Positions 3,765 through 49,502 of a stretch of DNA of 52,439 bases are shown here, piece by piece (position 1 is the stretch's first letter; every line of letters starts with the position of its first letter). Where the stretch lies: contig JACORV010000119.1 in the NCBI GenBank assembly GCA_016179225.1, positions 1 through 52,439 on the forward strand, written 5' to 3'. The position numbers and the translations under genes were made by a program. The notes beneath the pieces were generated by a model, which was not told the origin of the DNA, made no database searches, and was given only the letters and a program-made list of their open reading frames with translations. The DNA is from Gemmatimonadota bacterium (GTDB lineage: Bacteria; Gemmatimonadota; Gemmatimonadetes; Gemmatimonadales; JACORV01).

Positions 3765-6700
3765 TGCCGGACGCGCGCGGCGCACGGCGCGCGCTGTTCG
3801 GCTCGCTGTTCTTCCTCTCCGGGGCGGCCGCCCTCGTCTATGAGCTGATCTGGGTCCGCCAGCTCTACCAGTTCTTCGGCTCCACCATCCATTCGGTTAC
3901 CACCGTCGTGGCCGCGTATATGGGCGGCCTCGGGTTGGGCGCGTATGTCTTGGGCCGGCGCGCGGACCGCGACGCCAATCCCGCGCGGCTCTATGGCGTC
4001 CTCGAGCTCGCGATCGGTGCGTTTGGGATCGCGTCACCCTTCGTCCTCTACGAGGTCGGCCGTGGGTATCTCGCCGTCGCGCGCACCCTGGAGCCCGGGC
4101 TGTGGGCGGCCACCGCGATCAAGTTCGTGTTCGCCTTCGCCGTTCTCCTCGTCCCGACGTTCCTCATGGGCGGCACGCTGCCCATCCTGACGCGCGCCTT
4201 TGCCGGCGAGCGGACCGATCACCTGCGACGGGAGCTGGCGCTGTTCTACGGGCTCAACACGGTGGGCGGCGTGGCGGGCTGCATGCTGGCCGGCTACGCG
4301 CTCATCGAGTACGTCGGGCTCCGGCAGTCCCTGATCGCGACCGGGTTCCTCAACCTCGCGCTGGGCGCCGCGGCCCTCGCGCTCGCGGGGCGAAGGGCGC
4401 TGGAGACGCCCGAGCCGGCGGCCGGCCGGGCGCCGGCCCTCGGCCCCGACCCCGGTGCCGACACGCGGCGGCTCGCACTGTGGCTGATCGCCATCACGGC
4501 CTTCGCGTCGCTGCTGTACGAGATCGCCTGGACCCGCGTGCTGGTCCTGGTGGTCGGCAGCTCGACCTACGCGTTCACGACCATCCTCGCGTGCTTCCTC
4601 TTCGGGATCGGCTTCGGCAGCCTCGTGGCGATCGGCCGTGGCTGGCCCTCGCGCGACCTGCTGATCCGGTCCGCCCTGATCCAGGGCGCGATCGGGGTGC
4701 TCGCCTCACTCCTCTTCCCGTTCTTTGGCGCGCTGCCCGTCTACATCGTCGGTACGTTGCAGGTCTCGTTCCTCACGCCCGCGGAGCTGCTGGTCCTGCA
4801 AGGGCTCGCGGTCGCGGTGGTGGTAGTACCGCCGGCGTTCGGCATGGGGCTCAGCTTCCCGATCCTCGCGGAGCTCGCGGCGGAACGGGCCGGGACGACG
4901 GGGCGAGCATCGGGCCGCGCGTACTTCGCCAATACTCTCGGCAGCATCGCGGGCGCGGTGATCACCGGGTTCCTATTGATCCACCTCATCGGCAGCGAGC
5001 GCACCCTCCAGCTGGGCGTGGTGGTCAACGTGAGCGCCGCGGCGGTCATGGCTTGGTGGCTGTACCGGGAGCGCGCGGCCGGCGGCCTCCCGGTTCCCGT
5101 CGAGCGCCTGCCGCTGGCGATCGGCGCGCTCGCGCTGGTCGTCACCTTCGCCACCCCCAGCTGGTCGCGGCGGCTCCTCGATCGCGGCCCGGCGATCTAC
5201 GGCAAGGAGGAGATGGGACGCTGGGAGCTGGGCAACTTCCTCCGCGGTTACGGCGCCGAGCAGTTGGTGTTCGACGAGGGATGGAACGCGGCGATTTCGG
5301 TCTGGCGGAACGGCAACGCGACCTGGCTCAAGAGCAACGGCAAGGCGGACGCCTCCAGCGTCGCCGACATGAACACGCAGGTGATGGTGGGACTGATGCC
5401 GGCGCTGGCGCACCCCGCGCCCCGGCGCGCGTTCGTGCTCGGGTTCGGGAGCGGCGCCAGCGCGCGGACGGTGGCGGACGTGCCGGGCCTAGAGCGGATC
5501 GACGTCGTGGAGATCGAGCGCGCGGTGCTGCGCGCCGCCCCGCACTTCGCGATCGTGAACCGCGACGTGTTGCACGATCCCCGCGTGCGCGTGATCGAGG
5601 ATGACGCGCGCAGCGCGCTCCAGCTGGCGCGAGAGCCGTACGACATCGTCGTCGCGGAGCCCACCAACCCGTGGATCGCCGGCGTGGCCGCGCTCTTCAC
5701 GCGCGACTTTTTCCGTGTGGTGAGCGCGCACCTCGCCGACGACGGGGTGTTCTCGCAGTGGGTGCAGACGTATCGGGTGCCGCAGGGCGTGATCTCCGTG
5801 GTAGTCGCCAACCTGCGGTCCGTCTTCCCGCACGTCGAACTGTGGTATGCGAATCCCAACGACCTCATCCTCCTCGCCTCACGGCGGCCGATCCGGTGGA
5901 GCCAGGCGCGGGTCGCCGCGCTGATGGCGCCCGGCACACCGCTCGCTCAGAGCTTCCACGATTGGCTGGAGATTGACCGGCCGTCGCAGCTCCTGGGTCG
6001 GTTCCTGCTCGGGGAGCGCGGCACCGCCACGCTGGCGGGAATGGCGCTCTTCCAGCACAGCGACAACCGGCCGTCGCTGGAGTTTGTCGCGGCGCGTGGG
6101 CTCCTCGGCAGCAGCAGCGTGGCCGCCACGTTCGACTCGCTGCTCGGCATTAGGGCCGCCGCCGGCGACACGCTGCCGCAGCTGGCCGACTGGCCGCTCG
6201 CGCCGGGTGAGTGGCAGGCCGCCTACGGGCGGGCGTTGCCGGCCACAAGCCGTCTCGCGCTGCCTTACGCGGAGGAGGCCCTCCGGCTCGCGCCCGCCGA
6301 CGCCGAGCGCCGCGGCGAGTTGGGGCGCGTGCTCGTCGACCGCGACCAGTTCCGGAGCGCGCTGAGCTACCTGCTCCCCGCGCTCGAGAAGCGACCCAAC
6401 GACCCGAGACTCCTGGTGGTCGCCGGCGTGGCGGCCGCGGCGGGCCGCGACCTCGCGGGCGCCCGCGTCTATCTCGAGCGTGCGCGGGCGAGCGGCGGAG
6501 ACTCCGTGTACGCGACGAGCGTGCTGGCGGAGATGTTGGCTGGCGAGGGCGACTACGAGCGCGCCGCCACCGAGGCGCTTCGCGCGCTCCGAGGCCTGCG
6601 CCCCACGATCGCGACGCCGTTCCCCAGCGCGCTGGAAAGCACGGTGAGAAAGCTGGCGCTCCAGGCGCCGCCCGCGGTGGCCGCCCCGGTGCTCGATGCC

Positions 6701-6874
6701 GCCGCGCAGACCCGGCCGTCATGGGATCTCGCGTTCCACGGGGGGGCGCGGGTGTACGCGCGCTGGGGCGGTGACCATTGCGGCCAGGCCGCCCGGCTGG
6801 TGGAGCAGCTGCCGCGGTTCGGTTGGACGGAAACCGAGGCGAACGGTCTACTGAGGCCCTGCGCGCGGCGCTGA
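3764..6874 (+). CDS. Polytopic membrane protein fused to a spermidine-synthase-like (class I SAM-fold) domain, with a TPR-like C-terminus
   Basis: Real start is ATG 3764, overlapping the previous stop (TGATG), inside track ORF 3077..6874. About 480 aa of hydrophobic helices come first. Then VLGFGSGASARTV..VDVVEIERAV..DDARSAL..YDIVVAEPTNPW (SpeE-like fold), then Ala/Leu-rich TPR-like repeats. Confidence 0.75.
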   Translation: MPDARGARRALFGSLFFLSGAAALVYELIWVRQLYQFFGSTIHSVTTVVAAYMGGLGLGAYVLGRRADRDANPARLYGVLELAIGAFGIASPFVLYEVGRGYLAVARTLEPGLWAATAIKFVFAFAVLLVPTFLMGGTLPILTRAFAGERTDHLRRELALFYGLNTVGGVAGCMLAGYALIEYVGLRQSLIATGFLNLALGAAALALAGRRALETPEPAAGRAPALGPDPGADTRRLALWLIAITAFASLLYEIAWTRVLVLVVGSSTYAFTTILACFLFGIGFGSLVAIGRGWPSRDLLIRSALIQGAIGVLASLLFPFFGALPVYIVGTLQVSFLTPAELLVLQGLAVAVVVVPPAFGMGLSFPILAELAAERAGTTGRASGRAYFANTLGSIAGAVITGFLLIHLIGSERTLQLGVVVNVSAAAVMAWWLYRERAAGGLPVPVERLPLAIGALALVVTFATPSWSRRLLDRGPAIYGKEEMGRWELGNFLRGYGAEQLVFDEGWNAAISVWRNGNATWLKSNGKADASSVADMNTQVMVGLMPALAHPAPRRAFVLGFGSGASARTVADVPGLERIDVVEIERAVLRAAPHFAIVNRDVLHDPRVRVIEDDARSALQLAREPYDIVVAEPTNPWIAGVAALFTRDFFRVVSAHLADDGVFSQWVQTYRVPQGVISVVVANLRSVFPHVELWYANPNDLILLASRRPIRWSQARVAALMAPGTPLAQSFHDWLEIDRPSQLLGRFLLGERGTATLAGMALFQHSDNRPSLEFVAARGLLGSSSVAATFDSLLGIRAAAGDTLPQLADWPLAPGEWQAAYGRALPATSRLALPYAEEALRLAPADAERRGELGRVLVDRDQFRSALSYLLPALEKRPNDPRLLVVAGVAAAAGRDLAGARVYLERARASGGDSVYATSVLAEMLAGEGDYERAATEALRALRGLRPTIATPFPSALESTVRKLALQAPPAVAAPVLDAAAQTRPSWDLAFHGGARVYARWGGDHCGQAARLVEQLPRFGWTETEANGLLRPCARR

Positions 6875-24252: not shown

Positions 24253-25914
24253 CTACGAGACGCGCTTGAGCTGCACGCGCCGGTTCTGCGCCCGGCCGGC
24301 GGCCGTGGTGTTGGGGGCGATCGGGCGATCCGGACCGACGCCGACGGCGACGAGAACGCTGCGATCGACTCCCTTGCTGACGAGGTAATTCGCCACCGCG
24401 TCGGCCCGGTTCTGCGAGATGCGCCGGTTCAGCGCGACCGCGCCGCGGTTGTCGGTGTGGCCCTGGACCTCCCAGCGCGAGCCCGGGGTCGCCACGATGG
24501 CGGCCGCGATCCCGTCGAGGGCGGTCCGCGCGGCCGGCAGGATCTCCGCCGTGCCGGCGCGGAACTGCACCCGCAGCACCATCTCGCTGCCGACCGCCGG
24601 TAGCTCGGCGAGCGGGCAGCCGCTGGTGTCGACCCGGCGGCCGGCGGGCGTGTTGGCGCACCGGTCGTTGGCGTCAATCACGCCATCGCCGTCCGCGTCA
24701 CGCGCCACGGGGCAGCCGTTGGCATCCACCTGCGTGCCGGCGGCGGTGTTCGGGCAGCGGTCGGTGTTGTCCGCTACGCCGTCGCCGTCACTGTCGCGCG
24801 GGCACCCGTTGGCGTCCACCGGAGTGCCGGCGGGCGTGTTCGGACAGCGGTCGCTGTTGTCCATCACGCCGTCGCCGTCGCTGTCGCGCGGGCACCCGTT
24901 GGCGTCCACCGGAGTGCCGGCGGGCGTGTTCGCGCAGCGATCCAGGTGGTCGGCCACGCCGTCACGATCGGTGTCGACCGGGCAGCCGTTGGCGTCCACG
25001 CGAACGCCGGAGGGCGTGTTCGGGCAGCGGTCGAGGTTGTCGGCGATGCCGTCGCTGTCGGTGTCGCGGGTGCAGCCGTTCGCGTCCACCGGCGTGTTGG
25101 GCGGCGTGTTCGCGCACCGATCGAGGCCGTTGAGGACGCCGTCGCGGTCGGTGTCGGACGGGCAGCCTCGCACGTCCACCGTGGCGCCGCGCGGGGTGCT
25201 GGCGCAGCGGTCGCGCCGGTCCGCGACGCCGTCGCCGTCGGTGTCGCGCGGCGGCCCGCCGCCGGCGAAGTACGACACGCCGAGCGTGGCGGTACCGTTG
25301 TAGGCAGGATCCGGAGTCTCGTCGTAGTTCTCGTACGCGATCCGGCCCTCGAGGCGCACGGCGAGGTTCTCCCCGACCATCGAGCGGACGCCGACGCCAG
25401 CATGGCCACCGAAGGTCGCGGTGATGTGGCTCCCGTTGCCCGAGAAGCGGGTCAAGCCGGCGCCCACAGTCGCGAACGGACTCATCTTGCGATTGATGTC
25501 CATCGTGTAGGTGAGGGCGCCGAACGGTGAAATCGCCGTCGCGCCGTTGCCGGTCGCGAACCCGGACCCGGCGCTCACACCGATGTTCTTGGTAAAGTTG
25601 TAGCCGACGCGGGCCACGCCGCCGGGCATGATTCTGCTGGGATCAGGGTCGGCGATACCGGCACTCGCGAGGGAGCCGTTCAGCGCCTGGTCGATGGTCA
25701 TGAGGCCGCCGGAGATACTCAGCTCGATGCTCCCCTCGCGGTGGGCCGCCATCATCGCCCGGGCCGCGGGACGCTGTGCGGGCTGAGCCGCCGGCCGCTG
25801 CGGCGGAGGTGTCGCCGGTCGCGCCGGAGGTTGCGCCGGCCGCTGCTGGGCCATCGCCAGCGTCGGCACGAACGCCGCCAGCGTTCTCGCAGCCAACAAG
25901 AATCGGTTACGCAT
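24253..25914 (-). CDS. OmpA-family outer-membrane protein with an N-terminal beta-barrel, thrombospondin type-3 (calcium-binding) repeats and a C-terminal OmpA domain
   Basis: Signal peptide, porin-like Gly/aromatic region, about 9 repeats of D.D.DGV.D..D.C.NTP, and an OmpA-C motif VQGHTDNRGAVALNRRISQNRADAVANYL. Confidence 0.9.
   Translation of the reverse strand: MRNRFLLAARTLAAFVPTLAMAQQRPAQPPARPATPPPQRPAAQPAQRPAARAMMAAHREGSIELSISGGLMTIDQALNGSLASAGIADPDPSRIMPGGVARVGYNFTKNIGVSAGSGFATGNGATAISPFGALTYTMDINRKMSPFATVGAGLTRFSGNGSHITATFGGHAGVGVRSMVGENLAVRLEGRIAYENYDETPDPAYNGTATLGVSYFAGGGPPRDTDGDGVADRRDRCASTPRGATVDVRGCPSDTDRDGVLNGLDRCANTPPNTPVDANGCTRDTDSDGIADNLDRCPNTPSGVRVDANGCPVDTDRDGVADHLDRCANTPAGTPVDANGCPRDSDGDGVMDNSDRCPNTPAGTPVDANGCPRDSDGDGVADNTDRCPNTAAGTQVDANGCPVARDADGDGVIDANDRCANTPAGRRVDTSGCPLAELPAVGSEMVLRVQFRAGTAEILPAARTALDGIAAAIVATPGSRWEVQGHTDNRGAVALNRRISQNRADAVANYLVSKGVDRSVLVAVGVGPDRPIAPNTTAAGRAQNRRVQLKRVS
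24612..25250 (-). repeat. Coding tandem repeats (TSP3 modules), including a recently homogenised 90-bp unit
   Basis: 24791-24842 and 24881-24932 are identical over 52 nt at a 90-nt period (one 30-aa module). Flanking modules are more diverged. Confidence 0.85.
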
Positions 25915-26194: not shown

Positions 26195-28306
26195 TCACCC
26201 CTTCACGAAACGCGCGGCGCCAGCGAGTTGCTCGGCGCTCCGGGAGAGCTGGATCGCACTTCGGGACAGGTTCTCGATGGCGTCGAGCTGTTCGGCGGCG
26301 GAAGCGGCGACCACCTTAGCCTCGGAGGCGGATGTCTGGGCTGCCTGGCCCAGCTCCGTCAGCATCCTCTGCATCTCATCGGCCTGGGCCGTGTTCCGGC
26401 GGGGGAACTCCACCATCCGCTCCGAGAGGCGCGCGGCGGTCTCGCTGGCCCGCACGATGGATTCCAGGTCCGCGATCCACTGATTGGCCGCCGCCGCGGT
26501 GTCGCCGATTTCGCGCCGCATCCGTTCGAGCAGCTGGGCCGCGCGGTCGAGCACCCGCCGCGTTTCCGCGGTGGTCTTGGTCGCGCGCGCGGCCTCCCGG
26601 GCGCTCTCCTCGGCGAGCCGGCGCACCTCGTCGGCCACCACCGCGAACCCCGCCCCGTGCGCGCCGGCGCGGGCCGCCTCGATTGTCGCGTTGAGGGCCA
26701 GCATGTTGGTCTGATTCGCCACGGCACCAATCGTCTCGGCGAACCGTCCCACCTGCTCCGCCGCTTCCCGCAGCCGCCCCACCTCGGCGGCGCCGTGTTC
26801 GACCGTCTCGCCAATGCGCTCGAGGTTGCTCGCCGTCTTCGCGGTGGCCACACGAATGGTCTGGGCGGCCTGCTCCATCTCCTGCGCCGCGCGATGCGTC
26901 TCGTTGCCGGCGGCCGCCGCATCGTGGGCGCTCGCGCGCAGCCCGACCATGGCCTCCTCGGCGCTTTCGACCAGGGTCGCCGCCGCCACTGCGCCGGTTT
27001 CGGCCCGCTGGGCCGCAGCCGTCACTTCCTCCGAGCTGGCGTGGATCTGCTGGCTCGTCGCGGTGAGGTGCTCGACGTACATCGCCGTCTGCTCGGACGA
27101 CTCGATGAGCGGCGCCACCAGCGCGTGGAGGCTGAGGGCCAGCGCGAGGTTCGGCGCGAGGGAGGCCAAGAGCAGCGCGTCGACATCGCGGTACATCGAG
27201 GGGTCGCCGTGCCGGATGCTCCACGCGCCGATCAGCTTCTCCCCCTGATAGAGCGGAATGAGGATCTCGGAGCCCGGTCGCTCCCAGTCGGCCGACGGCG
27301 CCCCCGATTGGCGCAGGCTGCTGGCGACGACCGGCCCGCGGCGCCGCAGCGCTTCGCCGGTGAGCCCCTGGTCGGCGGGCAGGCGACTCCCCCGCGTGTG
27401 CTCGGCACTGGTATCGGCGATTAGCTCCAACTCGTGCTTTGCTTCGTCGTAGCGCGCGAAGCCCATGTGCTCCCAGGGCATGAGCCGGCGGGTCAGATCC
27501 TGAATGGTGGCGAAGTTGCGGTCCAGGTTGATGTCCGCCGCAATCGCGCTCGAGAGTCGCTGGATCAGCCGCAGCTCGTCGGCCCGCACCCCCATCCGCG
27601 CGACCCACAGGACCAGCGCGGTGAGGCCGAGGAGCGTCACGCCCAGGGCGATCTTGTAGCTCGCGGGCGCCGCCATCACCGAGACCGCGAACCACCCCAG
27701 CGCGAGGCCGGCACTCAGGGCGAAGACCACGCCTTCCCAACGTAGCGTGAGCCGGGCATCCACCCAGGCGACCGCCTGCGAGAGCGCGAGCTCCAGGTAA
27801 AAGGTCGCGTTCACCACTATTGGCAGCACAACGACCAGGGCGAGGAGGGGCAAGCCGTTCGACGGCCAGAGCGCCGCCGGCCCGTACGCACCGCCGATCA
27901 GGTCGTAGAAGAAGCCGACGGCCGCGCTGCCGAAGGTGAGGTGTCCGACGTTGATGAGGGCGGCACGTGGGGGGAGTTTCCGGAAGACCAGATCGCCTGC
28001 CGGCATGCCGAAGAGAGCCACCAGCGCGCCCCAGGCCCAGCCGTGTCGCAGAATCGCGAAGAGCACCACCGCCAACACGAACGACGCGAACCCCTTGCCG
28101 GGCAGGGGCAGACCGAACTCCCGGGTGGCCGCGGCGGCGACCACCGTGAGCGCAAGCTCGACCCAAGGGAACGGCGCCGGGAGGCTCGACGTCCAGATCG
28201 CGGCGACAATCGCGAACACGGCACCGGTCACGACGCCGATCTGGATCAGCGTTTCTCGGCGGACCGCAGTTTCCTGGTCGAAAGTGTTGTCCAAGCTCAG
28301 CTCCAA
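26195..28306 (-). CDS. Methyl-accepting chemotaxis protein with a polytopic N-terminal membrane domain and a GAF-like domain
   Basis: MCP signalling hairpin [35 protein letters not shown]. About 8 predicted TM helices at the N-terminus, with a GAF-like middle region. Track start 28306 is a TTG. Confidence 0.85.
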
Positions 28307-28321
28307 CAGCGCCTTTCGTGC

Positions 28322-28341
28322 CTGACTGATTGCTCAGTCAG
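28322..28341. promoter_or_regulatory. Perfect 8-4-8 palindrome CTGACTGA-TTGC-TCAGTCAG in the MCP / selW-like divergent region
   Basis: Read directly; it lies 16 nt upstream of the MCP start. A near-identical copy lies at the TetR gene (32886-32905). Confidence 0.5.
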
Positions 28342-28504
28342 TAAGCCTCATTCTCGTTTGTCGTGGATGGCGCGCCCCGATGAAGTCGGAAACCAGAGGC
28401 CTGCCAGGTTAAGGCGCAAATCGGGGCGCGTCAAGCGACGGACTGTCGTCGGCGCGGCCGCGGTGCTAGAGTGTGAGCCGGTAATGGGCCAAGTGAGGAG
28501 TGCG

Positions 28505-28732
28505 ATGCGGGTGCGCATCGAGTACTGCGTCGTCTGAAACTACGAGCCGCGCGCCGCCGGTCTGGCGGCGGAGATTCGGCAACGGTACCCAGGCGCGGAG
28601 ATCGCGCTCGAGGAATCCTCGGGCGGGGTCTTTGAGGTGGCCGTCGACGGGCAGCTGATCTTTTCGAAGAAGGCGCTGGGGCGGCATGCCGAGCCGGGGG
28701 AGATCCTGACGCTGATGGCACCGTGCGCATAG
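28505..28732 (+). CDS. SelW/Rdx-family selenoprotein (75 aa; TGA 28535-28537 read as selenocysteine)
   Basis: GAGGAG lies 4 nt upstream of ATG 28505. Translation is MRVRIEYCVV-U-NYEPRAAGLAAEIRQRYPGAEIALEESSGGVFEVAVDGQLIFSKKALGRHAEPGEILTLMAPCA. It has the Rdx-family CxxU motif and the GG.FEV.VDG.LI.SKK..GR..EP signature. The frame stays open to TAG 28730-28732. Confidence 0.75.
28552..28570 (+). other. SECIS-like hairpin downstream of the in-frame UGA
   Basis: CGCCGCC-GGUCU-GGCGGCG: a 7-bp perfect stem beginning 14 nt after the UGA, with a G-initiated apical loop about 24 nt from the UGA. Confidence 0.55.
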
Positions 28733-29802
28733 CGCTCTCCACGGGCGGCGGGGACGCGCCGGGGCTGAACGCGGTCATCCGGGGAGCGGTCCTGGCCGCC
28801 GTCAGCAGGGGCTGGTCGGTGTACGGCATCCAGCGCGGCTACGGCGGGCTGCTCGGCAACGACCGCGTGGTCTCCCTCGGTGCCGACGAGGTGCGCGGAA
28901 TCACGCACGTGGGCGGCACGATTCTCGGCACGACCAACCGTGGCGATCCGTTCAAGTGGCCGACGCCGCAGCCCGACGGGTCGATCAAGGAGGTCGACCG
29001 CTCCGACGACATCCTGGCCGCGTTCGCGGCGCATGGCTTCGACGCATTGGTGACGATCGGGGGCGACGGGAGCCTCCGCATCGCGCAGAAGCTCTATGAG
29101 AAGGGCCTTCCCTTGGTGGGCGTGCCGAAGACGATCGACAACGACGTGAGCGGGACGGTGATGACTTTCGGCTTCGACACGGCGGTGTCCACGGCCACCG
29201 ACGCGCTCGACAAGGTGCACTCGACGGCGGAGAGCCACGACCGGGTGATGGTGGTCGAGGTGATGGGACGCTACGCCGGGTGGATCGCGCTCAACGCCGG
29301 GCTGTCGGGCAGCGCGGACGTGATCCTCATTCCCGAGATCCCGTTCGACATCGAGAGCGTGTGCCGCAAGATCCGGGAGCGCGACGCGCGGGGCCGCCGG
29401 TTCAGCGTGGTGGTGGTGGCGGAGGGTGCGACATCGAAGGGTGGCGGCCACGTGGTACAGGCATCCGCGGCGCCCGGCGGGATGGAGCGGCTGGGCGGGA
29501 TCGCGGCCGTCGTGGCGAAGGAGATCGAGGTGCGGACGGGCAAGGAGACGCGCGCGCTCACCCTCGGGCACCTCCAGCGCGGCGGCACGCCGACGACATT
29601 CGACCGCCTGCTCTCGCTGCGGTTCGGCGCGGCGGCGATCCGGTGCATTGCCGGCGGGACGTTCGGCGTGATGGTCGCGCTCACGCCGCCCACGGTCAGC
29701 TTCGTGTCCCTCAAGGAAGCGCTCGCGAAACCCAAGCTGGTGCCGCTCGACGCCGACACGATTCTGACGGCGCGCGAAATCGGCGTCTGCCTGGGCGACT
29801 GA
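28723..29802 (+). CDS. pfkA: 6-phosphofructokinase
   Basis: STGGGDAPGLNAVIRG, TIGGDGS, PKTIDND, MGRYAGWIA. GTG start overlaps the selW-like gene by 10 nt. Confidence 0.9.
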   Translation: MRIALSTGGGDAPGLNAVIRGAVLAAVSRGWSVYGIQRGYGGLLGNDRVVSLGADEVRGITHVGGTILGTTNRGDPFKWPTPQPDGSIKEVDRSDDILAAFAAHGFDALVTIGGDGSLRIAQKLYEKGLPLVGVPKTIDNDVSGTVMTFGFDTAVSTATDALDKVHSTAESHDRVMVVEVMGRYAGWIALNAGLSGSADVILIPEIPFDIESVCRKIRERDARGRRFSVVVVAEGATSKGGGHVVQASAAPGGMERLGGIAAVVAKEIEVRTGKETRALTLGHLQRGGTPTTFDRLLSLRFGAAAIRCIAGGTFGVMVALTPPTVSFVSLKEALAKPKLVPLDADTILTAREIGVCLGD

Positions 29803-29808
29803 GCGCGC

Positions 29809-32361
29809 GTGCATCCCGCCCGAGACCACTACCTCCCACCGGATCGGCAGGCCTTCCACGCGGCGCGGCCCGCCACCGGTCGCGTCGTGGTCATCGCGCC
29901 CACCCGCGCGGCGTGCGAGACCATCGAGCTCGCGATGGGTCTCTATCTCGAGACGATCCTGGAGGCCGAGCACGGCGAGGAGCTGCGCGAGCTGGCGGGG
30001 AGCGGGGACGGCTTCGGGATCGTGGCGGGGACCGGGACGGGCAAGACGCTCGGGATCCGGCCGATGGCCGAAGCGATCCTGTGCGCGCCGCTCCGGGTCG
30101 GCGTGGTCAATCGCGAGCGGGAGGCGACGCCGGAGACGCCGACGTGGAACGTCGTGATCGTCACGACCGGGATCGCGCGGCGCTGGTTCCAGGCGGGCCT
30201 CATCACCGGCGACGACACGCTGGTGGCGGACGAGATCCACCAGACGTCGGCCGAGCTCGAGCTCTGCCTGGCGCTCGGCAAGCGCGCGGGTTGCCGCTTC
30301 ATCTGGCTTTCGGCCACCGTGGACCCGTCGTTCTACGCGCGGTACCTCGAGTCGCGTCGGGTCATCGAGAGCAGCGCGTTCGACCCATTACTGGCCGCGC
30401 GGGTTCGCGTGGCGCCGATGCCGGTGGGCGAGTTTCTGGACGCCAGGTTTCTGCGGCGCGTCGTCCGGGAGCGTAGGGGCGTGGCGGTGTTCGTCCCCAC
30501 GCGCGCGGAGGTCGAGGCGCTCGCGGGCGGCATTGGGGCGCGGTGGCCTGCCCTAACCACCGCGTTCTACCACGGCGGTGAGCCGATCCGCGTGATCCGT
30601 CCCTTTCTCGACGGCAGCGCGCCCAAGCCGTACCTGCTCGCGATGACGGCGGCGGGGCAGTCGGCGCTCAACATCCGCGGGCTCGACACGGTCGTGATCC
30701 TCGACGCGCGATACCAGAACGTCGTCTCACGCGGCCGGAACGTGCTGACGCGCATGCCGCTCGGCGCGAACGAGATCCTGCAGATGGCGGGGCGCGTGCA
30801 CGGACGCGTGGAAGGCGGGGAAGTCACTATCCTGACCGACCGCGACCTCGACTTCGCGACCCTCGAACCTCAGCCGCCCGAGTTTCAGCTAGCTGGAGAC
30901 GCGGAACGAGTTGCGCTCACCTGCGCGGCGCTCGGTGTGGACGCGCGCGACCTGGAGCTCCCCGTGGCGCTCGACCGGCGCGCCTACGCAGCGGCGGTAC
31001 AGTTGCTCGAGGCACGCGGCATCGTCGAGAACGGCGCCCTGACGGCCTACGGCGCCGAGGTCGAGGCGTTGCCGGTCGAGCGTCCGTGGGCCGAGCTCCT
31101 CCTGCATGGTGACGCCGAGCTCGTTCCGGCGATCGCCGTCGTGGCGGCCGTGGAATCCCTCCACCGCATGACCCGCGAGGAACGCATGCTGCGCGGGCTG
31201 GTCGTTCCCGGATCGGATCACCTCACGGCCTACAACCTCTACGCGGAGGCCGTGAACCGCCACGGCACGGTCGGCGAGGTCTACGGGCTCGAGCGGCACG
31301 TCTTCGGGCCCTCGCTCGACGAGTGGGCCGAGGAGCGGGGCGTGCTGGTGAAGGCCATCGAGGACGCGGCGCTGGGGTTCGCGTCGGTTTATCGCGCGCT
31401 CGAGACGGCGCTTCCGCCGCGGCTGGCCTACGCGAACGAGCGCTTGCTAAGGCGATTCCAGGATCTCGTCGCGCGCGTGATGCCGCTCGACCTCGTCATC
31501 GACGAGCAGACGGCCACCGGCGATCCGGTGCGGGTGTCCCGGACGTCGGTGTGCGGGGCATGGGGGGGCGTGGCGGGCGCGATCCGCTACTTCGCCGACC
31601 GCTTCGGGGTGCCCCGGGCCGCGGTCGAAGGGACCCAGCTGCCCTACGATCTGATCCGCCATTACGCGCGCGCCGAAGCGCCCGAGGTCATATACGACCC
31701 GCGACACAATCGCACGCCGCTCGTGGCGCTCCGGCGCCTGCGCTATCACGGCTTCGAGCTCGACAAAGAGATGGAGGTCCTCGACCGGATTCCGTCGGAG
31801 CTCCTGGGGTCGGCGCGCGCGGCCCTCGTGGACGCGGTGATGACCGGGGCCGCGCGCCACAAGGACGCCCGGGTGCTGCGTCACACCCTTGAGCGCCTGG
31901 GGGAGCTATACCGGCGCTCGGGCGGCGCGCTCACGAACGCATCCGGCGCGGCTGTACGCACCGCGCTGGGCGCGCGGCTCAGGGATCTCGTGCGGTACGA
32001 CGACTTCTTGCGCGCGGACCTGGCGCTCTCGGTGGACGAGTTCGTGCCGAAGGAGCAGCGGCGCGCCCTCGAAGCGCTGCCGTCGTGGGTGGACATCGCC
32101 GGCGAGCGATGCCCGGTCGCCTACGAGATTGACGGCGAGCGGGCGATCGCGCGGGTGCGGGTAAAGGAGGGGCTCGCCCGCCGGCTGACGCCCGAGGACC
32201 TGCCCCCGATGGACCGGCCGCTGGTGTTCGCCGTGGTGCGCGGCAAGCACGCAGCCATCCGCGCCGCATCGCTGGAGGAGCTCCGGCGCGAACTCAGCGC
32301 CGGGTCGCGGATTGGCCCGCGGCAATCAGTGCGAGCCAGAAAGCGTCGTAGGCGCTCCTGA
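29809..32361 (+). CDS. DEAH-box ATP-dependent helicase (HrpA/HrpB-like)
   Basis: AGTGTGKT (motif I), DEIH (motif II), SAT (motif III), QMAGRVHGR (motif VI), and a long C-terminal helicase-associated region. Confidence 0.8.
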   Translation: MHPARDHYLPPDRQAFHAARPATGRVVVIAPTRAACETIELAMGLYLETILEAEHGEELRELAGSGDGFGIVAGTGTGKTLGIRPMAEAILCAPLRVGVVNREREATPETPTWNVVIVTTGIARRWFQAGLITGDDTLVADEIHQTSAELELCLALGKRAGCRFIWLSATVDPSFYARYLESRRVIESSAFDPLLAARVRVAPMPVGEFLDARFLRRVVRERRGVAVFVPTRAEVEALAGGIGARWPALTTAFYHGGEPIRVIRPFLDGSAPKPYLLAMTAAGQSALNIRGLDTVVILDARYQNVVSRGRNVLTRMPLGANEILQMAGRVHGRVEGGEVTILTDRDLDFATLEPQPPEFQLAGDAERVALTCAALGVDARDLELPVALDRRAYAAAVQLLEARGIVENGALTAYGAEVEALPVERPWAELLLHGDAELVPAIAVVAAVESLHRMTREERMLRGLVVPGSDHLTAYNLYAEAVNRHGTVGEVYGLERHVFGPSLDEWAEERGVLVKAIEDAALGFASVYRALETALPPRLAYANERLLRRFQDLVARVMPLDLVIDEQTATGDPVRVSRTSVCGAWGGVAGAIRYFADRFGVPRAAVEGTQLPYDLIRHYARAEAPEVIYDPRHNRTPLVALRRLRYHGFELDKEMEVLDRIPSELLGSARAALVDAVMTGAARHKDARVLRHTLERLGELYRRSGGALTNASGAAVRTALGARLRDLVRYDDFLRADLALSVDEFVPKEQRRALEALPSWVDIAGERCPVAYEIDGERAIARVRVKEGLARRLTPEDLPPMDRPLVFAVVRGKHAAIRAASLEELRRELSAGSRIGPRQSVRARKRRRRS

Positions 32362-32884
32362 GCGTGTCGCGGGGATCGCCGGCCGCGAGAGCCAGCGCCA
32401 GACCGTCGAGCAGAACGAGGATCGCCCTGGCGAGCTCGTCGGCGGGAGCCGGCGGGCGCACTCCCAGCTCGCGAAACAGACCGGGCAGCCTCGCGGCCAC
32501 GCGGCCCTGCTCGCCAGCCCGCTCGGCGGCTACCACGGCCGCGATGTCGTGGTTGGCCCGCGCATGCAGGATCAGCTCGCACCAGGCGGCCTCGAGTGGG
32601 TGGTTCGCGAGGTTCTGGACGCTGCTCCATACGGCGTCGAGCGTCGCGAGGCCGCCCGACTCCGAAAACGCCTTGGCGCGCCAATTCGCGCGCGTTCGAG
32701 CGAGTCGCTCGGCTGCCGCAACCAGCAACTTGTCCTTGGTGGCAAAGTGGTAGTGAACGAGGGCGGAAGACACCTGGGCACGGGAGGCAACACTTCCGAT
32801 AGTGAAAGCGTCCAGCCCGTCGGCTGCTATGGCGCCAACGGCAGCCTCGATGATCCGCTCCCTCGTCTCGGCAGAGTTTTTCAT
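32294..32884 (-). CDS. TetR-family transcriptional regulator
   Basis: Start is ATG 32884 (MKNSAETRERIIEAAVGAIAADGLDAFTIGSVASRAQVSSALVHYHFATKDKLL) inside track ORF 32294..32956. Confidence 0.85.
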   Translation of the reverse strand: MKNSAETRERIIEAAVGAIAADGLDAFTIGSVASRAQVSSALVHYHFATKDKLLVAAAERLARTRANWRAKAFSESGGLATLDAVWSSVQNLANHPLEAAWCELILHARANHDIAAVVAAERAGEQGRVAARLPGLFRELGVRPPAPADELARAILVLLDGLALALAAGDPRDTLRSAYDAFWLALIAAGQSATRR

Positions 32885-43878: not shown

Positions 43879-46800
43879 TCAGTGAAAGTCATGCGACTCC
43901 ACGAACGCGGCGCCGGCCTGCGGGCTGAGCGCCGCGAACTTCTTTCCACGCACGTTGAGCACGCCCTGCTCCTCCTGGAGGATGCCGCGCACCAGGAGCA
44001 GGGGTGAGCGTATGACGAGCCGCCGGTTGGCCTCGAAGAGCCTGGGAGTGATGACGACGTTGGCGAGGCCGGTCTCGTCCTCGAGCGTCACGAAGCAGAA
44101 CCCCTTCGCCGTGCCGGGCCGCTGGCGGCAGATGACGATGCCGGCGACGGTCACCCAGTCGCCGTCGCGCTGGCGCGCGAGGTCGGCGGCGGTGGTGACG
44201 CCGCGCGCGCGCATCACCTCGCGCAGATGGCGCATGGGGTGGCCGGCGGGGGAGAGGCCGGTCACGCGGTAGTCCGCTTCGGTGAGCTCGACCGGCGCGA
44301 GCTGAGGCAGGGGGGCTGGCCGACGGTCTTGCGCCACGGGCGCGAGCGGGCCGGCTGCGCCACGGGCATGTTTGAGCAGCTCCCAGAGCGCCGACCGGCG
44401 GTTGGACCACAGGCTGCCGAAGGCGCCCGCCTCGGCGAGTGCGCGCAGCTGAGCGACGTTGAGCCCGCTCGCGCGTACCCATCCATCGAGCGAGTCGGGG
44501 CGTCGGCCGTCCAGGAGCGGCTCGAGCCGCTCTCTCGCCTTCTCGCCGAGGCCGCGGATGTAACGAAGGCCGATGCGTAGCGCGCGACGAGGGACGAGTC
44601 CTGCGCGGTCCGGCGGGCGCCGTGCGTGCCGTCCGACCGCCGGATCGCGCAGGGCTCGTCCCGAGGACGCGCGCTCGTCATCCGACTCCACGGTGCAATC
44701 CCACGCGCTGCGCATCACGTCCACGCCGCGCACCTCCACGCCGTGACGCCGCGCGTCCTCGACGATCGTGCCCGGCGCGTAGAAGCCCATGGGCTGCGCG
44801 TTGAGGAGCGCGCAGGTGAACTCGACCGGGTAGTAGTGCTTGAGGTACGCAGAGGCGTAGACGAGGAGCGCGAAGCTCGCCGCGTGGCTCTCGGGGAAGC
44901 CGTAATCCGCGAAGGCGGCGATCTGGTTGAAGATGCGACGCGCGACGTCCGGTTCGATCCCGTTCTTCGCCATGCCGTCGATCAGCTTCCGGCAGATCTT
45001 CGCCATCCGCTCGTGCGAGCGCTTGTGGCCCATAGCCCGGCGCAGCTCGTCGGCCTCGCCGGGGGTGAAGCCCGCCGCGGCGATCGCCACCTGCATCCCC
45101 TGCTCCTGGAAGAGCGGCACGCCGAGGGTGCGCTCGAGGATCGGCTCGAGGGAGGGATGCGGGTAGGTGACGGGCTCCTCGCCGGCGCGGCGCCGCAGAT
45201 ACGGGTGCACCATCTCGCCCTGGATGGGGCCGGGGCGGATGAGCGCCACCTCGACCACGAGGTCGTAGAACCTGCGTGGCGCGAGGCGGGGCAGGGTGTT
45301 CATCTGCGCGCGCGATTCCACCTGGAAGACGCCCACGGTATCGGCGCGGCAGAGCATGTCGTAGACGGCGGGGTCGTCCATCGGGAGCCTGGCGAGATCG
45401 ATGACGCCGCCGCAGTGCACGCGGATCAGCCGGATCGCGTCCTGGATCAGGGTGAGCATGCCGAGGCCGAGCAGGTCGATCTTGATGAGCCGGACCGGAT
45501 CGAGGTCGTCCTTGTCCCACTGGATGACGGTGCGCTCCGGCATCGCGGCGGGCTCGATGGGCACGACGGCGGCCAGCGGCTCCTTCGAGAGGACGAAGCC
45601 GCCCACGTGGATCGAGCGGTGGCGCGGGAGCTGGTGCAGCCCGCGCACGACTTCGGCGAGCATGTGGACGCGGTGGTCCTTGGGGTCGAGGTCGGCCGCG
45701 GCGGCGCCGCCTCCGAGCAACCTCTCGCCGGTCTCGCGCGCGCCGTCGCGGTCGGCCTCGTCCGCGAGCTTTTCGGCCTGCTGCACCGAGAAGCCGAGGA
45801 CCCGCGCGGCGTCGCGCACCGCGGCGCGGCCACGGTAGGTGATTGCCTCGCACACCATGGCGGCGTGGTCGCGCCCGTAGCGGCGGTAGACGTACTGGAT
45901 GACCTGCTCGCGGTCCCGGTGCGCGAAGTCGATGTCGATGTCGGGCGCCTCGCGCCGCTCCTCGGAGAGAAAGCGCTCGAAGAGCAACTCCATCCCGACC
46001 GGGTCGATCGCGGTGATGCCGAGGCAGTAACAGACGGCGGAGTTGGCCGCGGACCCACGCCCCTGCGCCAGCACGCCGAGACGGTTCGCCTCGCGCACGA
46101 TGTCCCAGACGATGAGGAAATAGCCCGGGAGGCCCAGACGCTCGATGACGTCCAGCTCGTGGCGGATCTGCTGGCGGTGACGAGCCGTGAGCCGTGAGCC
46201 GTACCGTTCGCGAGCTCCCGCGGCCACCAGCGAGGCGAGGTAGTCGTCGGCCGTCACGCCGGGCGGGAGCGGGAAGGCGGGGAGCGCGGGGGTGAGCTGG
46301 CCCATCCGGAACGCGCACCGCCCGGCGATCTCGCGCGTGGCGGCGAGAGCGTCGGGGTAGTGGCGCCAGTGGTGCGCGGTTTTCTCGGGGCGCTTGAGGT
46401 ACCACTCGCCGTTTGGCCGGAGCAGGGTGCCCGCCTCGTCCAGCGTGGCCTGGTGGCGGAGGCAGGTGAGGGCGTCGTGCACGAGGCGCCCCTTGGGCGT
46501 CGCATAGTGGACGTCGTTCGTCACCAGCCAGGGGAGGTCGAGCGAGCCGGCGAGCGCGATGAGCTTCGGCACGACGGCGCGCTCGGAGGCGAGCGCGTGG
46601 TCCCAGCACTCGACGGCCACGTTGCCCAGGAAGACCTCGGCGAGCCGGCCGAGGAGGGCGCGCGCGCCATCGTCGTCGTCCTTCGCGAGGCGCTGCGGGA
46701 CCTCGCCGAACGGACATCCGGTGAGGCAGAAGAGTCCCGCCGCGTGCCGCTCGACGTCGTCCCAGGACACCGCCGGCGCGCCGCGGTCACCGGCGCGCGC

Positions 46801-47085
46801 GAGGGTGACGAGGCGCGAGAGGTTCCGGTAGCCCGCCTCGTCCATGGCGAGCAGCGTCAGGTGGGACTTTGCGACGGTGGCCTCGAGCCCGATGAGCGCC
46901 TCGACGCCGTACTCCCGCCCCGCCTCGGCCCAGCGCACCGCGCCGCCCAGATCGTCGTGGTCGGTGAGCGCGATCGCCGTCATCCCGATCGCGGCCGCGC
47001 GCGCGATCAGCGTCTCGGGGTTCGACGCGCCGTCGAGGAGGGAGAACCCCGAATGGCAATGCAGCTCGACGTACTCGGCCGCCAC
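43879..47085 (-). CDS. dnaE2: Error-prone DNA polymerase III alpha-like subunit DnaE2 (ImuC)
   Basis: PHP domain ELHCHSGFSLLDGAS, Pol III alpha core and an OB-fold tail. It follows imuA-imuB. GTG 47085 lies 1 nt after the imuB stop and is preferred over track start 47157. Confidence 0.9.
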   Translation of the reverse strand: MAAEYVELHCHSGFSLLDGASNPETLIARAAAIGMTAIALTDHDDLGGAVRWAEAGREYGVEALIGLEATVAKSHLTLLAMDEAGYRNLSRLVTLARAGDRGAPAVSWDDVERHAAGLFCLTGCPFGEVPQRLAKDDDDGARALLGRLAEVFLGNVAVECWDHALASERAVVPKLIALAGSLDLPWLVTNDVHYATPKGRLVHDALTCLRHQATLDEAGTLLRPNGEWYLKRPEKTAHHWRHYPDALAATREIAGRCAFRMGQLTPALPAFPLPPGVTADDYLASLVAAGARERYGSRLTARHRQQIRHELDVIERLGLPGYFLIVWDIVREANRLGVLAQGRGSAANSAVCYCLGITAIDPVGMELLFERFLSEERREAPDIDIDFAHRDREQVIQYVYRRYGRDHAAMVCEAITYRGRAAVRDAARVLGFSVQQAEKLADEADRDGARETGERLLGGGAAAADLDPKDHRVHMLAEVVRGLHQLPRHRSIHVGGFVLSKEPLAAVVPIEPAAMPERTVIQWDKDDLDPVRLIKIDLLGLGMLTLIQDAIRLIRVHCGGVIDLARLPMDDPAVYDMLCRADTVGVFQVESRAQMNTLPRLAPRRFYDLVVEVALIRPGPIQGEMVHPYLRRRAGEEPVTYPHPSLEPILERTLGVPLFQEQGMQVAIAAAGFTPGEADELRRAMGHKRSHERMAKICRKLIDGMAKNGIEPDVARRIFNQIAAFADYGFPESHAASFALLVYASAYLKHYYPVEFTCALLNAQPMGFYAPGTIVEDARRHGVEVRGVDVMRSAWDCTVESDDERASSGRALRDPAVGRHARRPPDRAGLVPRRALRIGLRYIRGLGEKARERLEPLLDGRRPDSLDGWVRASGLNVAQLRALAEAGAFGSLWSNRRSALWELLKHARGAAGPLAPVAQDRRPAPLPQLAPVELTEADYRVTGLSPAGHPMRHLREVMRARGVTTAADLARQRDGDWVTVAGIVICRQRPGTAKGFCFVTLEDETGLANVVITPRLFEANRRLVIRSPLLLVRGILQEEQGVLNVRGKKFAALSPQAGAAFVESHDFH

Positions 47086-47086
47086 T

Positions 47087-48793
47087 TCAATCCCACCACC
47101 CTTCGACGAACCACTTCCGCTCCTTCGGCGACCGGAACAGCAACCAGAGCGCGCCACCCGCGGCGCGTGCCGTGTAGTAGTCGCGCGGCGGCCCGGTGGC
47201 CCGGCCGTCCCACCAGCGGGGAGCGAGCCGCTCCGGTCCGCACCAGTCGGTCACATCGTGCCAGACGTCTTCGTGCCGGAACGCTTCGAGCCCACCACGG
47301 CCAAGCCGGACGCGGATTGGTACCGGTGTTTCGAGCAGTCGGAGCGCGGCGGCGGCGGCCGGCGCGTCGTCGGGGCGGGTGTCGTGCGCTCGCGGCGGCG
47401 GACCGCACGCAGGGCGCCGCCGCTCGCGCCCGACACCCGCCCCTCCTCGCGCCATCGCCGTTTCCACCCACGTGCCGCCGTCCTGTGGCAAGTGCCCGTC
47501 GCGCTCCTGTGGCACGACGACCCCGTCGCTGCCCTCGCTGCCGCGGATGCGATCGAACGCGGCCACCAGCGCGCCCGGATCGACCCAGCGCGACGCGAGG
47601 AGGTTCCCCTGCTCGCCGGAGGCCGGCGCGGTGACCGCGGCGCCGAGCGCGAGGCCGGTGACGGGCTCCGGCAGATGCCACTTCTCGAGCGCGCTGCGGC
47701 AATGATCGAAGAGCGCGTCGGCGTGCGAGGTGGGGCGCGCGGGCCGCACCGCGCGCACGGCCTTCGAGCCGTCGTCGAGGTGGAGCGTGAGCGCCAGCTC
47801 GCGCGCGGCGAGCCCCCGGGCGCGGAGCGCCTCACCCAGGGAGGCGAGCGCGCCTCGGAGCACGAAGAGCAGCGGCTCGGCCGTCGCGACGGGGCCGCCC
47901 AGCTCGACCTCGATCACCGGGAGCGCGTCGTCGCGCGGCGTGGACGGTCCGCGCGGATCGATACCGCGCGCCAGCCGGTGCGCGGCGAGCCCCTGGGGTC
48001 CGAAGCGCGCCTCGACCTCGTCCGCCTCGAGCGCGGCGAGCTGGCCCACGGTCCTAAGACCGAGCGCGGCGAACGTGTCGGCGAGCTCCTCGTCGAGCGC
48101 GAGGAGGGCGAGCGGGAACGGCGCGAGGAACGCGGCGTCGGTGCCCGGGGTCACGACGGCGACGACCGGCGAGGAGGTGGCGGGGCCGCGCCGCAGCGAG
48201 CACTCACGGGGCGCAGCAAGGCGCGGCCCCACCCCGACGAGCGCAAGGTCGTCGCCGTCGTACGTCGCGGCGTAAGCCGCGATGGCCGAGTCGGCGATGC
48301 CGACGCGCGGCTCGCCGTAGCCGAGGCCGCGCGCGAGGCTGAGCAGCTTCCGCGCGAGGGCTTTCTCCTCGCCGAGGCCCGCGGCGTCCACCCACCAGAC
48401 GCCATCCGCAGTCGGCAGACGCGCAGACGCACAGACGCGCAGTGGGCCGCCTTCCCACGCCACGCGCGGGCTGGCAGCGAGCAGCGCGGTCGTCACGTCG
48501 AGCGCGGCGCGCGAGACCTTCTCGTCGTCCCACGGCAGGGCGACTAGGTCGGCGACGAGCGCCTGCGCCTGGGCGAGGGCCATGCCGGTGGCCACGCCCC
48601 GGCGCGCGGCTTCGGCGTCGGCCGCGAGGACGCGGGGCTTGCCGCGGACGTCGGTGAAGACGGCGGTCGGAAGGTCAGGCGGTCGGGCGGTCGGCCGTGC
48701 CGCGTCGCTTGGACCGCCTGTCCGCCTGCCCGCCAGACCGCCTGTCGCGAACCGCCCAATGCGAACGCAGGCGATCCGGCATCGGTAAGCCAA
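47087..48793 (-). CDS. imuB: ImuB (Y-family polymerase-like, catalytically inactive type)
   Basis: Position between imuA and dnaE2. Y-family-like N-terminus (RIACVRIGRFA .. RVLAADAEAARRGVATGM). 568 aa. Confidence 0.8.
   Translation of the reverse strand: MAYRCRIACVRIGRFATGGLAGRRTGGPSDAARPTARPPDLPTAVFTDVRGKPRVLAADAEAARRGVATGMALAQAQALVADLVALPWDDEKVSRAALDVTTALLAASPRVAWEGGPLRVCASARLPTADGVWWVDAAGLGEEKALARKLLSLARGLGYGEPRVGIADSAIAAYAATYDGDDLALVGVGPRLAAPRECSLRRGPATSSPVVAVVTPGTDAAFLAPFPLALLALDEELADTFAALGLRTVGQLAALEADEVEARFGPQGLAAHRLARGIDPRGPSTPRDDALPVIEVELGGPVATAEPLLFVLRGALASLGEALRARGLAARELALTLHLDDGSKAVRAVRPARPTSHADALFDHCRSALEKWHLPEPVTGLALGAAVTAPASGEQGNLLASRWVDPGALVAAFDRIRGSEGSDGVVVPQERDGHLPQDGGTWVETAMARGGAGVGRERRRPACGPPPRAHDTRPDDAPAAAAALRLLETPVPIRVRLGRGGLEAFRHEDVWHDVTDWCGPERLAPRWWDGRATGPPRDYYTARAAGGALWLLFRSPKERKWFVEGWWD
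48661..48743. repeat. Two inverted arrays of four octamers (AGGCGGNC / GNCCGCCT) forming an 83-nt imperfect palindrome at the imuA stop / imuB 5' region
   Basis: 48661-48692 reads CGGCGGTC GGAAGGTC AGGCGGTC GGGCGGTC. After a 19-nt spacer, 48712-48743 reads GACCGCCT GTCCGCCT GCCCGCCA GACCGCCT. 25/32 positions are complementary. Confidence 0.8.
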
Positions 48794-49502
48794 CCGTCAC
48801 CTCCACGGCGCGCGGGGCGCCGCCTTTCTCGATCGTGACGCGCAGCGTGCGCGGTGCGGGCCACGCGCCGCCCTGGCCGGCGAGTGCGGGGATGAAGCCG
48901 GCCGCGTCGGTGCGCGAGTGGACGGTGAGCACGAGCGTGGCGAACGGCGGCCGGCGAGGACGCGCCCGGGGCTCGCCGAGGCGAGCACTAACGGGGCGCA
49001 GCCCGGCGAGTCCCGGGCCATCCGAGCGCAAGGCCGCCGTTCGCACCACCAGCGCCGTGCCCTTGTCCCGCGCGATGCGCTGGAGGCGCAGGGCGACGCG
49101 GCGCGCGGGCGCCGGCGCCTGGTCCACGATCACGAGGCCGAAGGCGCCGCTGCGCAGAAGCACGTCCGTGCACCACCACGCGCTCTCCGTCGCCTTCGGC
49201 CGCACCACCCAGAACGGGCCGAGGACGGCGAGGTGCGCGGCGGCTTGCGGCGCTAGCGTTCGCTCGGCGTCCACGAGCGCCACACCCTCGTCGGCGCGGA
49301 GCGTCGCCTCCGTGAGGGCGAGGAGCAGCGCGGTGCCACCGGTGCCGAGCGGCGCGTTGAGCGCGGTGATCTGCCCGCGCGGGACGCCCCAGGGGAGCGC
49401 GGCGTCGAGCGCCGGGACGCCGAAGGCAACACCGCGGCGCCCGGCCGGGAGGAGGCGCTCGATCTCTTTTGGCAGCAACAACTTGAGGCTCAGTGCGGTC
49501 AT
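48675..49502 (-). CDS. imuA: ImuA (RecA/SulA-like component of the imuA-imuB-dnaE2 mutagenesis cassette)
   Basis: First gene of the cassette. GQITALNAPLGTGGTALLLAL (degenerate P-loop) and GLVIVDQ. The 3' 119 nt overlap imuB in another frame. Confidence 0.75.
   Translation of the reverse strand: MTALSLKLLLPKEIERLLPAGRRGVAFGVPALDAALPWGVPRGQITALNAPLGTGGTALLLALTEATLRADEGVALVDAERTLAPQAAAHLAVLGPFWVVRPKATESAWWCTDVLLRSGAFGLVIVDQAPAPARRVALRLQRIARDKGTALVVRTAALRSDGPGLAGLRPVSARLGEPRARPRRPPFATLVLTVHSRTDAAGFIPALAGQGGAWPAPRTLRVTIEKGGAPRAVEVTVGLPMPDRLRSHWAVRDRRSGGQADRRSKRRGTADRPTA

Follow-up and report, generated by a model that had tools for sequence, protein, structure and literature searches.

The selW locus and neighbouring genes

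The window, by which is meant the whole stretch of DNA that was analysed, comprises 52,439 nucleotides of a Gemmatimonadales genome and has a GC content of 70%. On its forward strand, positions 28505..28732 hold a gene of 75 codons and a TAG stop that is annotated, from Pfam, NCBIfam and comparative data, as a SelW-like (Rdx family) selenoprotein gene, hereafter selW. Ten sense codons (MRVRIEYCVV) beginning with ATG at 28505 precede an in-frame TGA at 28535..28537, and from this TGA the frame is open to the TAG at 28730..28732; when the TGA is read through, the product has 75 residues (MRVRIEYCVVUNYEPRAAGLAAEIRQRYPGAEIALEESSGGVFEVAVDGQLIFSKKALGRHAEPGEILTLMAPCA). The TGC at 28526..28528 encodes Cys8, the first residue of a CxxU motif, which is Cys in all 81 sequences compared and forms an invariant column (C8) of the homologue alignment. 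The TGA is predicted, from its conservation in orthologous loci and its replacement by Cys codons in Cys-form homologues, to encode selenocysteine (Sec) as residue 11. A Shine-Dalgarno-like GAGGAG (28495..28500, forward strand), read directly in the sequence, lies 4 nt 5′ of the ATG; among orthologous loci, a GGAGG-like motif is present 5′ of the start in L020, L026, L043, L046 and L077 and absent in L001, L005 and L013. Within the coding sequence, beginning 14 nt after the TGA, is a hairpin (28552..28570, forward strand) predicted to be a SECIS element, in which a 5′ arm CGCCGCC (28552-28558) and a 3′ arm GGCGGCG (28564-28570) form a perfect stem of 7 bp around the loop GGUCU (28559-28563). 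The initial annotation had claimed the open reading frame from ATG 28505 through the in-frame TGA to the TAG, the Shine-Dalgarno sequence, the hairpin with its spacing and a 10-nt overlap with the GTG start of a pfkA gene, and all of these were confirmed in the sequence.

The overlapping gene is pfkA (6-phosphofructokinase; 28723..29802, forward strand), identified by Pfam PFK (E=2.6e-104) and NCBIfam NF002872 (367.7 bits versus a cutoff of 253); since the Pfam match begins at residue 2, the GTG start at 28723 is well placed, and the first 10 nt of pfkA are shared with the end of selW. Six nt after the pfkA stop begins a DExH-box helicase-like gene (29809..32361, forward strand) that encodes 850 residues with the motifs GTGKT, DEIH, SAT and QMAGR. 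Its matches to Pfam DEAD and Helicase_C are sub-threshold only and it has no NCBIfam match, and the encoded protein looks like a member of a divergent, uncharacterised DExH-box helicase-like family. By tblastn, at least 45 loci have the helicase-like gene downstream of selW/pfkA, and it is probably the third gene of the selW-pfkA unit. A unit of selW-like, pfkA and DEAH-helicase genes had been proposed by the initial annotation; the tight spacing, the leading position of selW and the identity of pfkA stand, whereas the third gene is of the DExH type (DEIH) and has weak Pfam matches only.

Among the 80 best orthologous loci, pfkA lies directly 3′ of selW on the same strand in 68 (PfkA identity 54-84%), and where pfkA is missing (12 loci), selW is followed by the helicase-like gene. 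At their junction, selW and pfkA overlap by 4 nt in 20 loci and by 10 nt in the window and two loci, and they are separated by 1 nt in 11 loci and by 3 nt in seven; approximately 47 of the 67 measurable junctions fall between a 10-nt overlap and a 5-nt gap, the commonest arrangement being the 4-nt overlap of the ATGA type. Junctions as tight as these suggest that a glycolytic kinase is translationally coupled to a selenoprotein gene. A scan of 28250-32600 for promoter and terminator consensus sequences found none, so a selW-pfkA-helicase operon is predicted from spacing alone.

Divergent from selW across an intergenic region of 198 nt, a block on the reverse strand encodes a GAF-domain methyl-accepting chemotaxis protein (26195-28306), conserved 5′ of selW in 41/80 loci, and an OmpA-family outer-membrane protein with thrombospondin type 3 repeats (24253-25914), conserved 5′ of selW in 65/80 loci. 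The syntenic block that the window has in common with Gemmatimonadales loci consists of genes for an M14 peptidase, the OmpA/TSP3 protein and the GAF-MCP protein (opposite strand), followed by selW, pfkA and the helicase-like gene. Elsewhere in the window, three consecutive reverse-strand genes at 43879-49502 encode a RecA-like protein (48675-49502), a Y-family polymerase-like protein that contains an IMS_C domain (47087-48793) and another DNA polymerase III alpha, the second (43879-47157), an arrangement resembling the imuA-imuB-dnaE2 damage-inducible mutagenesis cassette. A forward-strand open reading frame of 1265 residues (3077-6874) has a spermidine synthase-like domain at residues 769-924 as its sole Pfam match.

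Family membership and fold

With U written as C, the full product matches Pfam PF10262 (Rdx) with E=1.4e-21 and 76.9 bits (cutoff 22.6), the NCBIfam equivalog NF041051 "SelT/SelW/SelH family (seleno)protein" with 103.5 bits (cutoff 88) and TIGR02174 with 65 bits (cutoff 34.2). The 64 residues after the TGA, taken alone, match Pfam Rdx at 4.7e-14. A sequence search of the PDB with the product returned Rdx proteins only, plus one designed repeat; the matches include MIEN1 (2LJK), Atu0228 (2FA8), SAV_2001 (3DEX) and mouse SelW (2NPB), and residues C8-V-V-U11 align with the CxxC of homologues and of the PDB Rdx proteins. By these sequence models, membership of the product in the Rdx family is secure, and the SelW/Rdx assignment made in the initial annotation holds above the curated cutoffs of PF10262, NF041051 and TIGR02174 alike.

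The fold was tested on a proxy, the natural Cys form P0002, which is 76% identical to the window protein. The AF2 model of P0002 (pLDDT 92.9) has the topology β1-(CxxC)-α1-β2-β3-β4-α2, with the CxxC located between a strand (E2-8) and a helix (H14-27). When this model was compared with the PDB by Foldseek, the top 23 matches were all Rdx proteins, followed by thioredoxins. Six bacterial SelW-related crystal structures of the Cys form (Agrobacterium Atu0228, 2FA8; Streptomyces SAV_2001, 3DEX; Pseudomonas, 2OKA and 2OBK; Bordetella, 2OJL; Vibrio, 2P0G) have the same fold as the model, with TM 0.83-0.90, rmsd 1.1-2.1 Å and the CxxC in the same β1-α1 loop; these proteins have Cys where the window protein has Sec, and identity is 26-40%. 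We know of no demonstrated biochemical function for any of these crystallised bacterial proteins. Mammalian selenoprotein W (2NPB) and MIEN1/C17orf37 (2LJK) belong to the same Rdx family and have CxxU or CxxC at the same position (TMq 0.69-0.75 with the P0002 model; Foldseek TM 0.69 for mouse SelW), but they are longer and only about 28% identical to the window protein. As modelled on its close Cys homologue P0002, the product is assigned a thioredoxin-like β1-α1-β2-β3-β4-α2 fold.

Conservation of the in-frame TGA

Orthologues were collected by scanning one genome per species (GTDB), which gave at least 449 relatives, and the best 80 were analysed. All 80 are labelled Gemmatimonadales or Gemmatimonadota except one bin labelled Methylomirabilota, and their products are 61-79% identical to the window protein. 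TGA occupies the Sec codon in 80/80 orthologous loci, and in 80/80 the start codon (ATG in 73, GTG in five, TTG in two) is positioned exactly 10 codons 5′ of the TGA. The read-through open reading frame has 72-84 codons in 79 of the 80 loci, and neither a frameshift nor a second stop occurs anywhere among the 80 orthologues. Column entropies at the three codon positions are 1.83/1.83/1.84 on the 5′ side of the ATG, 0.57/0.41/0.94 in codons 1-10, and 0.62/0.37/1.21 in codons 12-70, after the TGA; equal coding periodicity on both sides of the TGA and a flat profile 5′ of the ATG indicate protein-coding selection on both flanks. The initial annotation had named the lack of a conserved frame downstream of the TGA in related genomes as evidence against its reading, and both the frame and the TGA are kept in 80/80; that U occupies the position of the second Cys in CxxC homologues is likewise borne out by TGT or TGC at the same codon in the Cys forms.

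A protein search identified 520 homologues, of which the best 120 include 24 with CxxC, 29 with "CxxW" and 66 that are truncated so as to start just after the site. The expectation that standard gene callers would miss a gene of this kind is correct insofar as most of these entries were truncated (66/120) or called with W (29/120), but several of them have already been given the name "selenoprotein W-related", a label that JGI applies to many of the truncated homologues.

The hairpin downstream of the TGA

In the window by itself, the hairpin is no more than would be expected by chance: its folding energy is unremarkable at 70% GC (z = -0.44; 60 of 200 shuffled sequences fold at least as well), and four of the seven stem pairs, which join the first two positions of Ala codons, follow necessarily from the peptide A-A-x-L-A-A. 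Its significance comes from comparative data only. A gapless alignment of the 60 nt from the TGA was made for 80 sequences (the window and 79 loci), all rows of which are distinct. In the helix formed by columns 18-24 with 30-36, 94.1% of cells pair, versus 16-58% for controls in which the 3′ arm is shifted by 1-3 columns, and four of the pairs have changed on both sides among the aligned sequences. RNAalifold, unaided, predicts the same helix, and over the 60 nt that follow the UGA it predicts no further conserved one.

Only the pairs between two third codon positions, namely 18-36, 21-33 and 24-30, are informative. The outer pair 18-36, between the third positions of Arg16 and Ala22, where changes are synonymous, is G-C in 44 sequences, A-U in 23, C-G in five and unpaired in eight. 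With 0.84 bits, it has the highest mutual information of 1378 variable third-position pairs in the gene, the next best being 0.34 and the whole set having a mean of 0.085 (sd 0.052); a value so far above those of all other third-position pairs cannot be explained by shared ancestry. Pair 21-33 is never broken (C-G in 73, U-G in six, G-C in one), and pair 24-30 is invariant. Even where the peptide has changed, as in L043 and L071, in which Ala residues of the two arms have been replaced by Ile and Met (ATC...GAT), two pairs are kept.

Codon choice is very unusual in the loop and its surroundings. The codon for Gly19 is GGT in 60/61 sequences against a background of 10-12%, Ser at residue 19 is encoded by AGT in 18/18 against a background of 1.5-3.6%, Leu20 is CTG or TTG and never CTC (35-49% elsewhere), and Ala21 is GCG in 78/79. 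Residue 19 may be Gly, Ser or Arg, yet its codon is always N-G-U/G, and the retention of this codon shape while the amino acid varies indicates that the constraint acts on the RNA and not on the protein. The loop has an invariant G26, with U27 after it in 78/81 sequences, and the consensus of the hairpin is 5′-N GCC RCC [R G U Y U] GGC GGC N′-3′. As judged from the alignment, the hairpin at 28552-28570 is selected as RNA. The proposal of the initial annotation that it is a functional SECIS-like element is thus supported by covariation at synonymous sites and by rare codons fixed in loop and stem. The covariance-model check that accompanied that proposal did not favour it: no Rfam SECIS family was matched by the whole window at the gathering threshold or by 28520-28620 at E<=10, both searches giving chance matches only.

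The SECIS element of E. coli fdhF is a hairpin that starts 11 nt after the UGA, has conserved loop bases G23 and U24, and is described as contacting SelB through G23 and a bulged U17 (PMC8659212). Like it, the window hairpin is located in coding sequence just after the UGA and has a small loop with G followed by U (G26 U27); unlike it, the window hairpin has a stem 14 nt from the UGA, a loop G-U that is one codon farther away, and seven perfect base pairs with no equivalent of the bulged U17. Among the hallmarks of fdhF-type elements (11-nt spacing, bulged U17 and G23-U24), the window hairpin has the loop G-U only. The comparative evidence presents it as an element that works like a bacterial SECIS and is not a sequence relative of the fdhF type. 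Eukaryotic SECIS elements are located in the 3′ UTR and have a structure different from that of bacteria.

Cys-form homologues

A true Cys codon (TGT or TGC) is found in place of the Sec codon in L081-L092. Cys forms are rare; JGI metagenomes scanned for the pattern yielded only two. Among about seven Cys-form lineages examined, the hairpin is intact in three (L087, L088 and L089), so the presence of the hairpin alone is no proof of Sec use. In four Cys-form lineages the hairpin is degraded, by changes of a kind never seen among 81 Sec forms. The loop is GGCCU in L081 and L083, the latter also having a broken closing pair; L084 and L091 have two mismatches and the loop GCGCU; L092 has the loop GCUCU; and in the main Cys clade, Gly19 has been replaced by Ala, with loss of the invariant G26. 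This pattern is suggestive of relaxed constraint on the hairpin after conversion of Sec to Cys, the hairpins of the Cys forms looking like the "remnant SECIS" structures that Zhang et al. 2006 (PMC1794560) described, although the sample is small and clade-structured. The neighbourhood of the Cys form L081 lacks pfkA, and a helicase-like gene is next instead.

Alternative explanations

A CxxC Rdx gene could decay into a pseudogene from which nothing functional is made if its second Cys codon mutated to TGA; the change from TGT or TGC requires a single base, true Cys forms exist in close relatives, and no Sec machinery is seen in the window. So explained, however, the TGA would have to have been retained in 80/80 species-level genomes that encode proteins 61-79% identical without any frameshift or extra stop, under purifying selection with codon periodicity on both sides of it and with a hairpin that is under selection at the RNA level; nor are the orthologues copies of one assembly sequence, all 80 rows being distinct. 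The probability of decay is close to nil. Extremely unlikely, too, is an internal start from which the sequence after the TGA alone is translated into an Rdx fragment without the CxxU. The 66 truncated entries among the top 120 database homologues, which begin near 'MAAEI', were called in this manner, but the window frame contains no ATG, GTG or TTG from the TGA to Val45, and a restart there would produce 31 residues only, without β1 and α1. Furthermore, codons 1-10 are conserved as coding sequence, Cys8 is invariant, the start is fixed in 80/80 loci, and strand β1 (residues 2-8) is predicted by the model to be integral to the fold. The conserved TGA, the conserved start and the coding conservation on both flanks exclude a pseudogene and a downstream-start gene alike.

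The deposition of 29 of the top 120 database homologues with W at the site raises the question of whether the UGA is translated as something other than Sec, either by genome-wide reassignment (code 4/25) or by near-cognate read-through with Trp, Cys or Arg. The W is an artefact of the code used in gene calling, as illustrated by P0010, a JGI call in which both the Sec-TGA and the stop TGA were read as W, the DNA having TGA at the site and at the real stop. TGA is the stop of 12 of the 28 predicted genes of the window, including pfkA, and 64/80 selW orthologues themselves terminate in TGA approximately 65 codons past the Sec-TGA. These stops exclude genome-wide reassignment, and the two meanings of TGA within one gene require a local signal. 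In addition, the site aligns with the redox Cys of CxxC, a classic Sec/Cys pair, and under reassignment a dedicated conserved hairpin would have no purpose; a reading as an amino acid other than Sec is very unlikely. Another alternative grants the insertion of Sec and supposes that the peptide RAAGLAAE gives rise to the hairpin at 28552-28570 only incidentally, the true SECIS being elsewhere. In its favour, 4/7 of the pairs are fixed by the first two positions of Ala codons, the hairpin is kept by some Cys forms and its folding energy is unremarkable. Against it, the strongest constraint and the most atypical codons are found precisely in the three wobble-wobble pairs and the loop, codon 19 remains N-G-U/G whether it specifies Gly, Ser or Arg, and RNAalifold finds no other conserved helix within 60 nt of the UGA, which leaves a by-product exceedingly improbable.

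Predicted selenocysteine insertion and its machinery

It is very probable that the locus is a real gene for a SelW-like selenoprotein, in which an in-frame UGA specifies Sec and the SECIS looks functional. On translation, UGA 28535-28537 would be decoded as Sec, with the hairpin 14 nt downstream presenting the apical loop R-G-U-Y-U; binding of SelB to this hairpin and incorporation of selenium are predicted from sequence features. The product would be a 75-residue thioredoxin-fold Rdx redox protein with the active site Cys8-Val-Val-Sec11, which presumably functions as a small oxidoreductase that cycles between the selenenylsulfide and the selenol/thiol. As the first gene of a tightly packed selW-pfkA-helicase unit, selW may be co-transcribed with the other two.

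Pfam searches of 40 open reading frames of the 52-kb window revealed no selA, selB or selD, and ARAGORN found no tRNA-Sec (selC) in the window and the 80 loci, which yielded one tRNA-Val only. Approximate probes for E. coli SelA, SelB and SelD gave no tblastn match in the window and loci (approximately 0.77 Mb of flanks). The Sec machinery is not linked to selW; from the evolutionary signature of the gene, we infer that it is present in the organism. A search of the window for a second selenoprotein gene, defined by an in-frame TGA flanked to either side by coding signal, returned only selW, the stop of pfkA and an antisense artefact, and the same search of 0.77 Mb of loci returned nothing convincing. 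In the literature searched, which included Peng et al. 2016 and its supplements, nothing relevant was found on the use of Sec by Gemmatimonadetes, Gemmatimonadota or Gemmatimonas.

Comparison with known SelW-like selenoproteins and implications

SelW-like selenoproteins with the CxxU motif have been identified in Geobacter sulfurreducens, Desulfotalea psychrophila, Campylobacter, Desulfotomaculum, Symbiobacterium and the Sargasso Sea metagenomes, in which they constitute the most abundant selenoprotein family with 48 genes, and they have few Cys homologues in organisms that use Sec (PMC1088965, PMC1794560). Their genes are often missed or truncated by annotation (PMC4607533). The window gene has in common with the known bacterial members the curated HMM family, the CxxU motif, the small size and the SECIS hairpin shortly after the UGA; it differs from them in belonging to a Gemmatimonadales clade for which no published description was found, in being part of a conserved selW-pfkA pair, and in having a SECIS loop of R-G-U-Y-U. 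The family has long been known, bacterial SelW-like selenoproteins and their loss in annotation having been described since 2005 and a curated NCBI model being in place, and its members rank among the most abundant selenoproteins of bacteria. Mild novelty lies in the order-wide clade in Gemmatimonadales, in the SECIS consensus of that clade and in the conserved coupling between selW and pfkA.

The coupling of selW and pfkA might be functional in either of two ways: the efficiency of Sec insertion at the UGA, and with it the supply of selenium, might gate the translation of PfkA by translational coupling, or the SelW-like protein might be a dedicated redox partner of PfkA. Such a function is unlikely; if true, the role as a partner of PfkA would give the SelW-like family, which is without a function, its first physiological target.

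In annotation, selW should be presented as a selenoprotein gene with a transl_except at 28535-28537, not dropped or truncated. The selW data set also provides a clean teaching example of an RNA element that shapes codon choice within a coding sequence, and the lineage-specific SECIS consensus (NGCCRCC-RGUYU-GGCGGCN′) may be used to seek further selenoproteins of Gemmatimonadales. The Gemmatimonadales are a largely aerobic soil lineage, and the presence of selW predicts a full Sec-decoding machinery in this organism and apparently in most members of the order.
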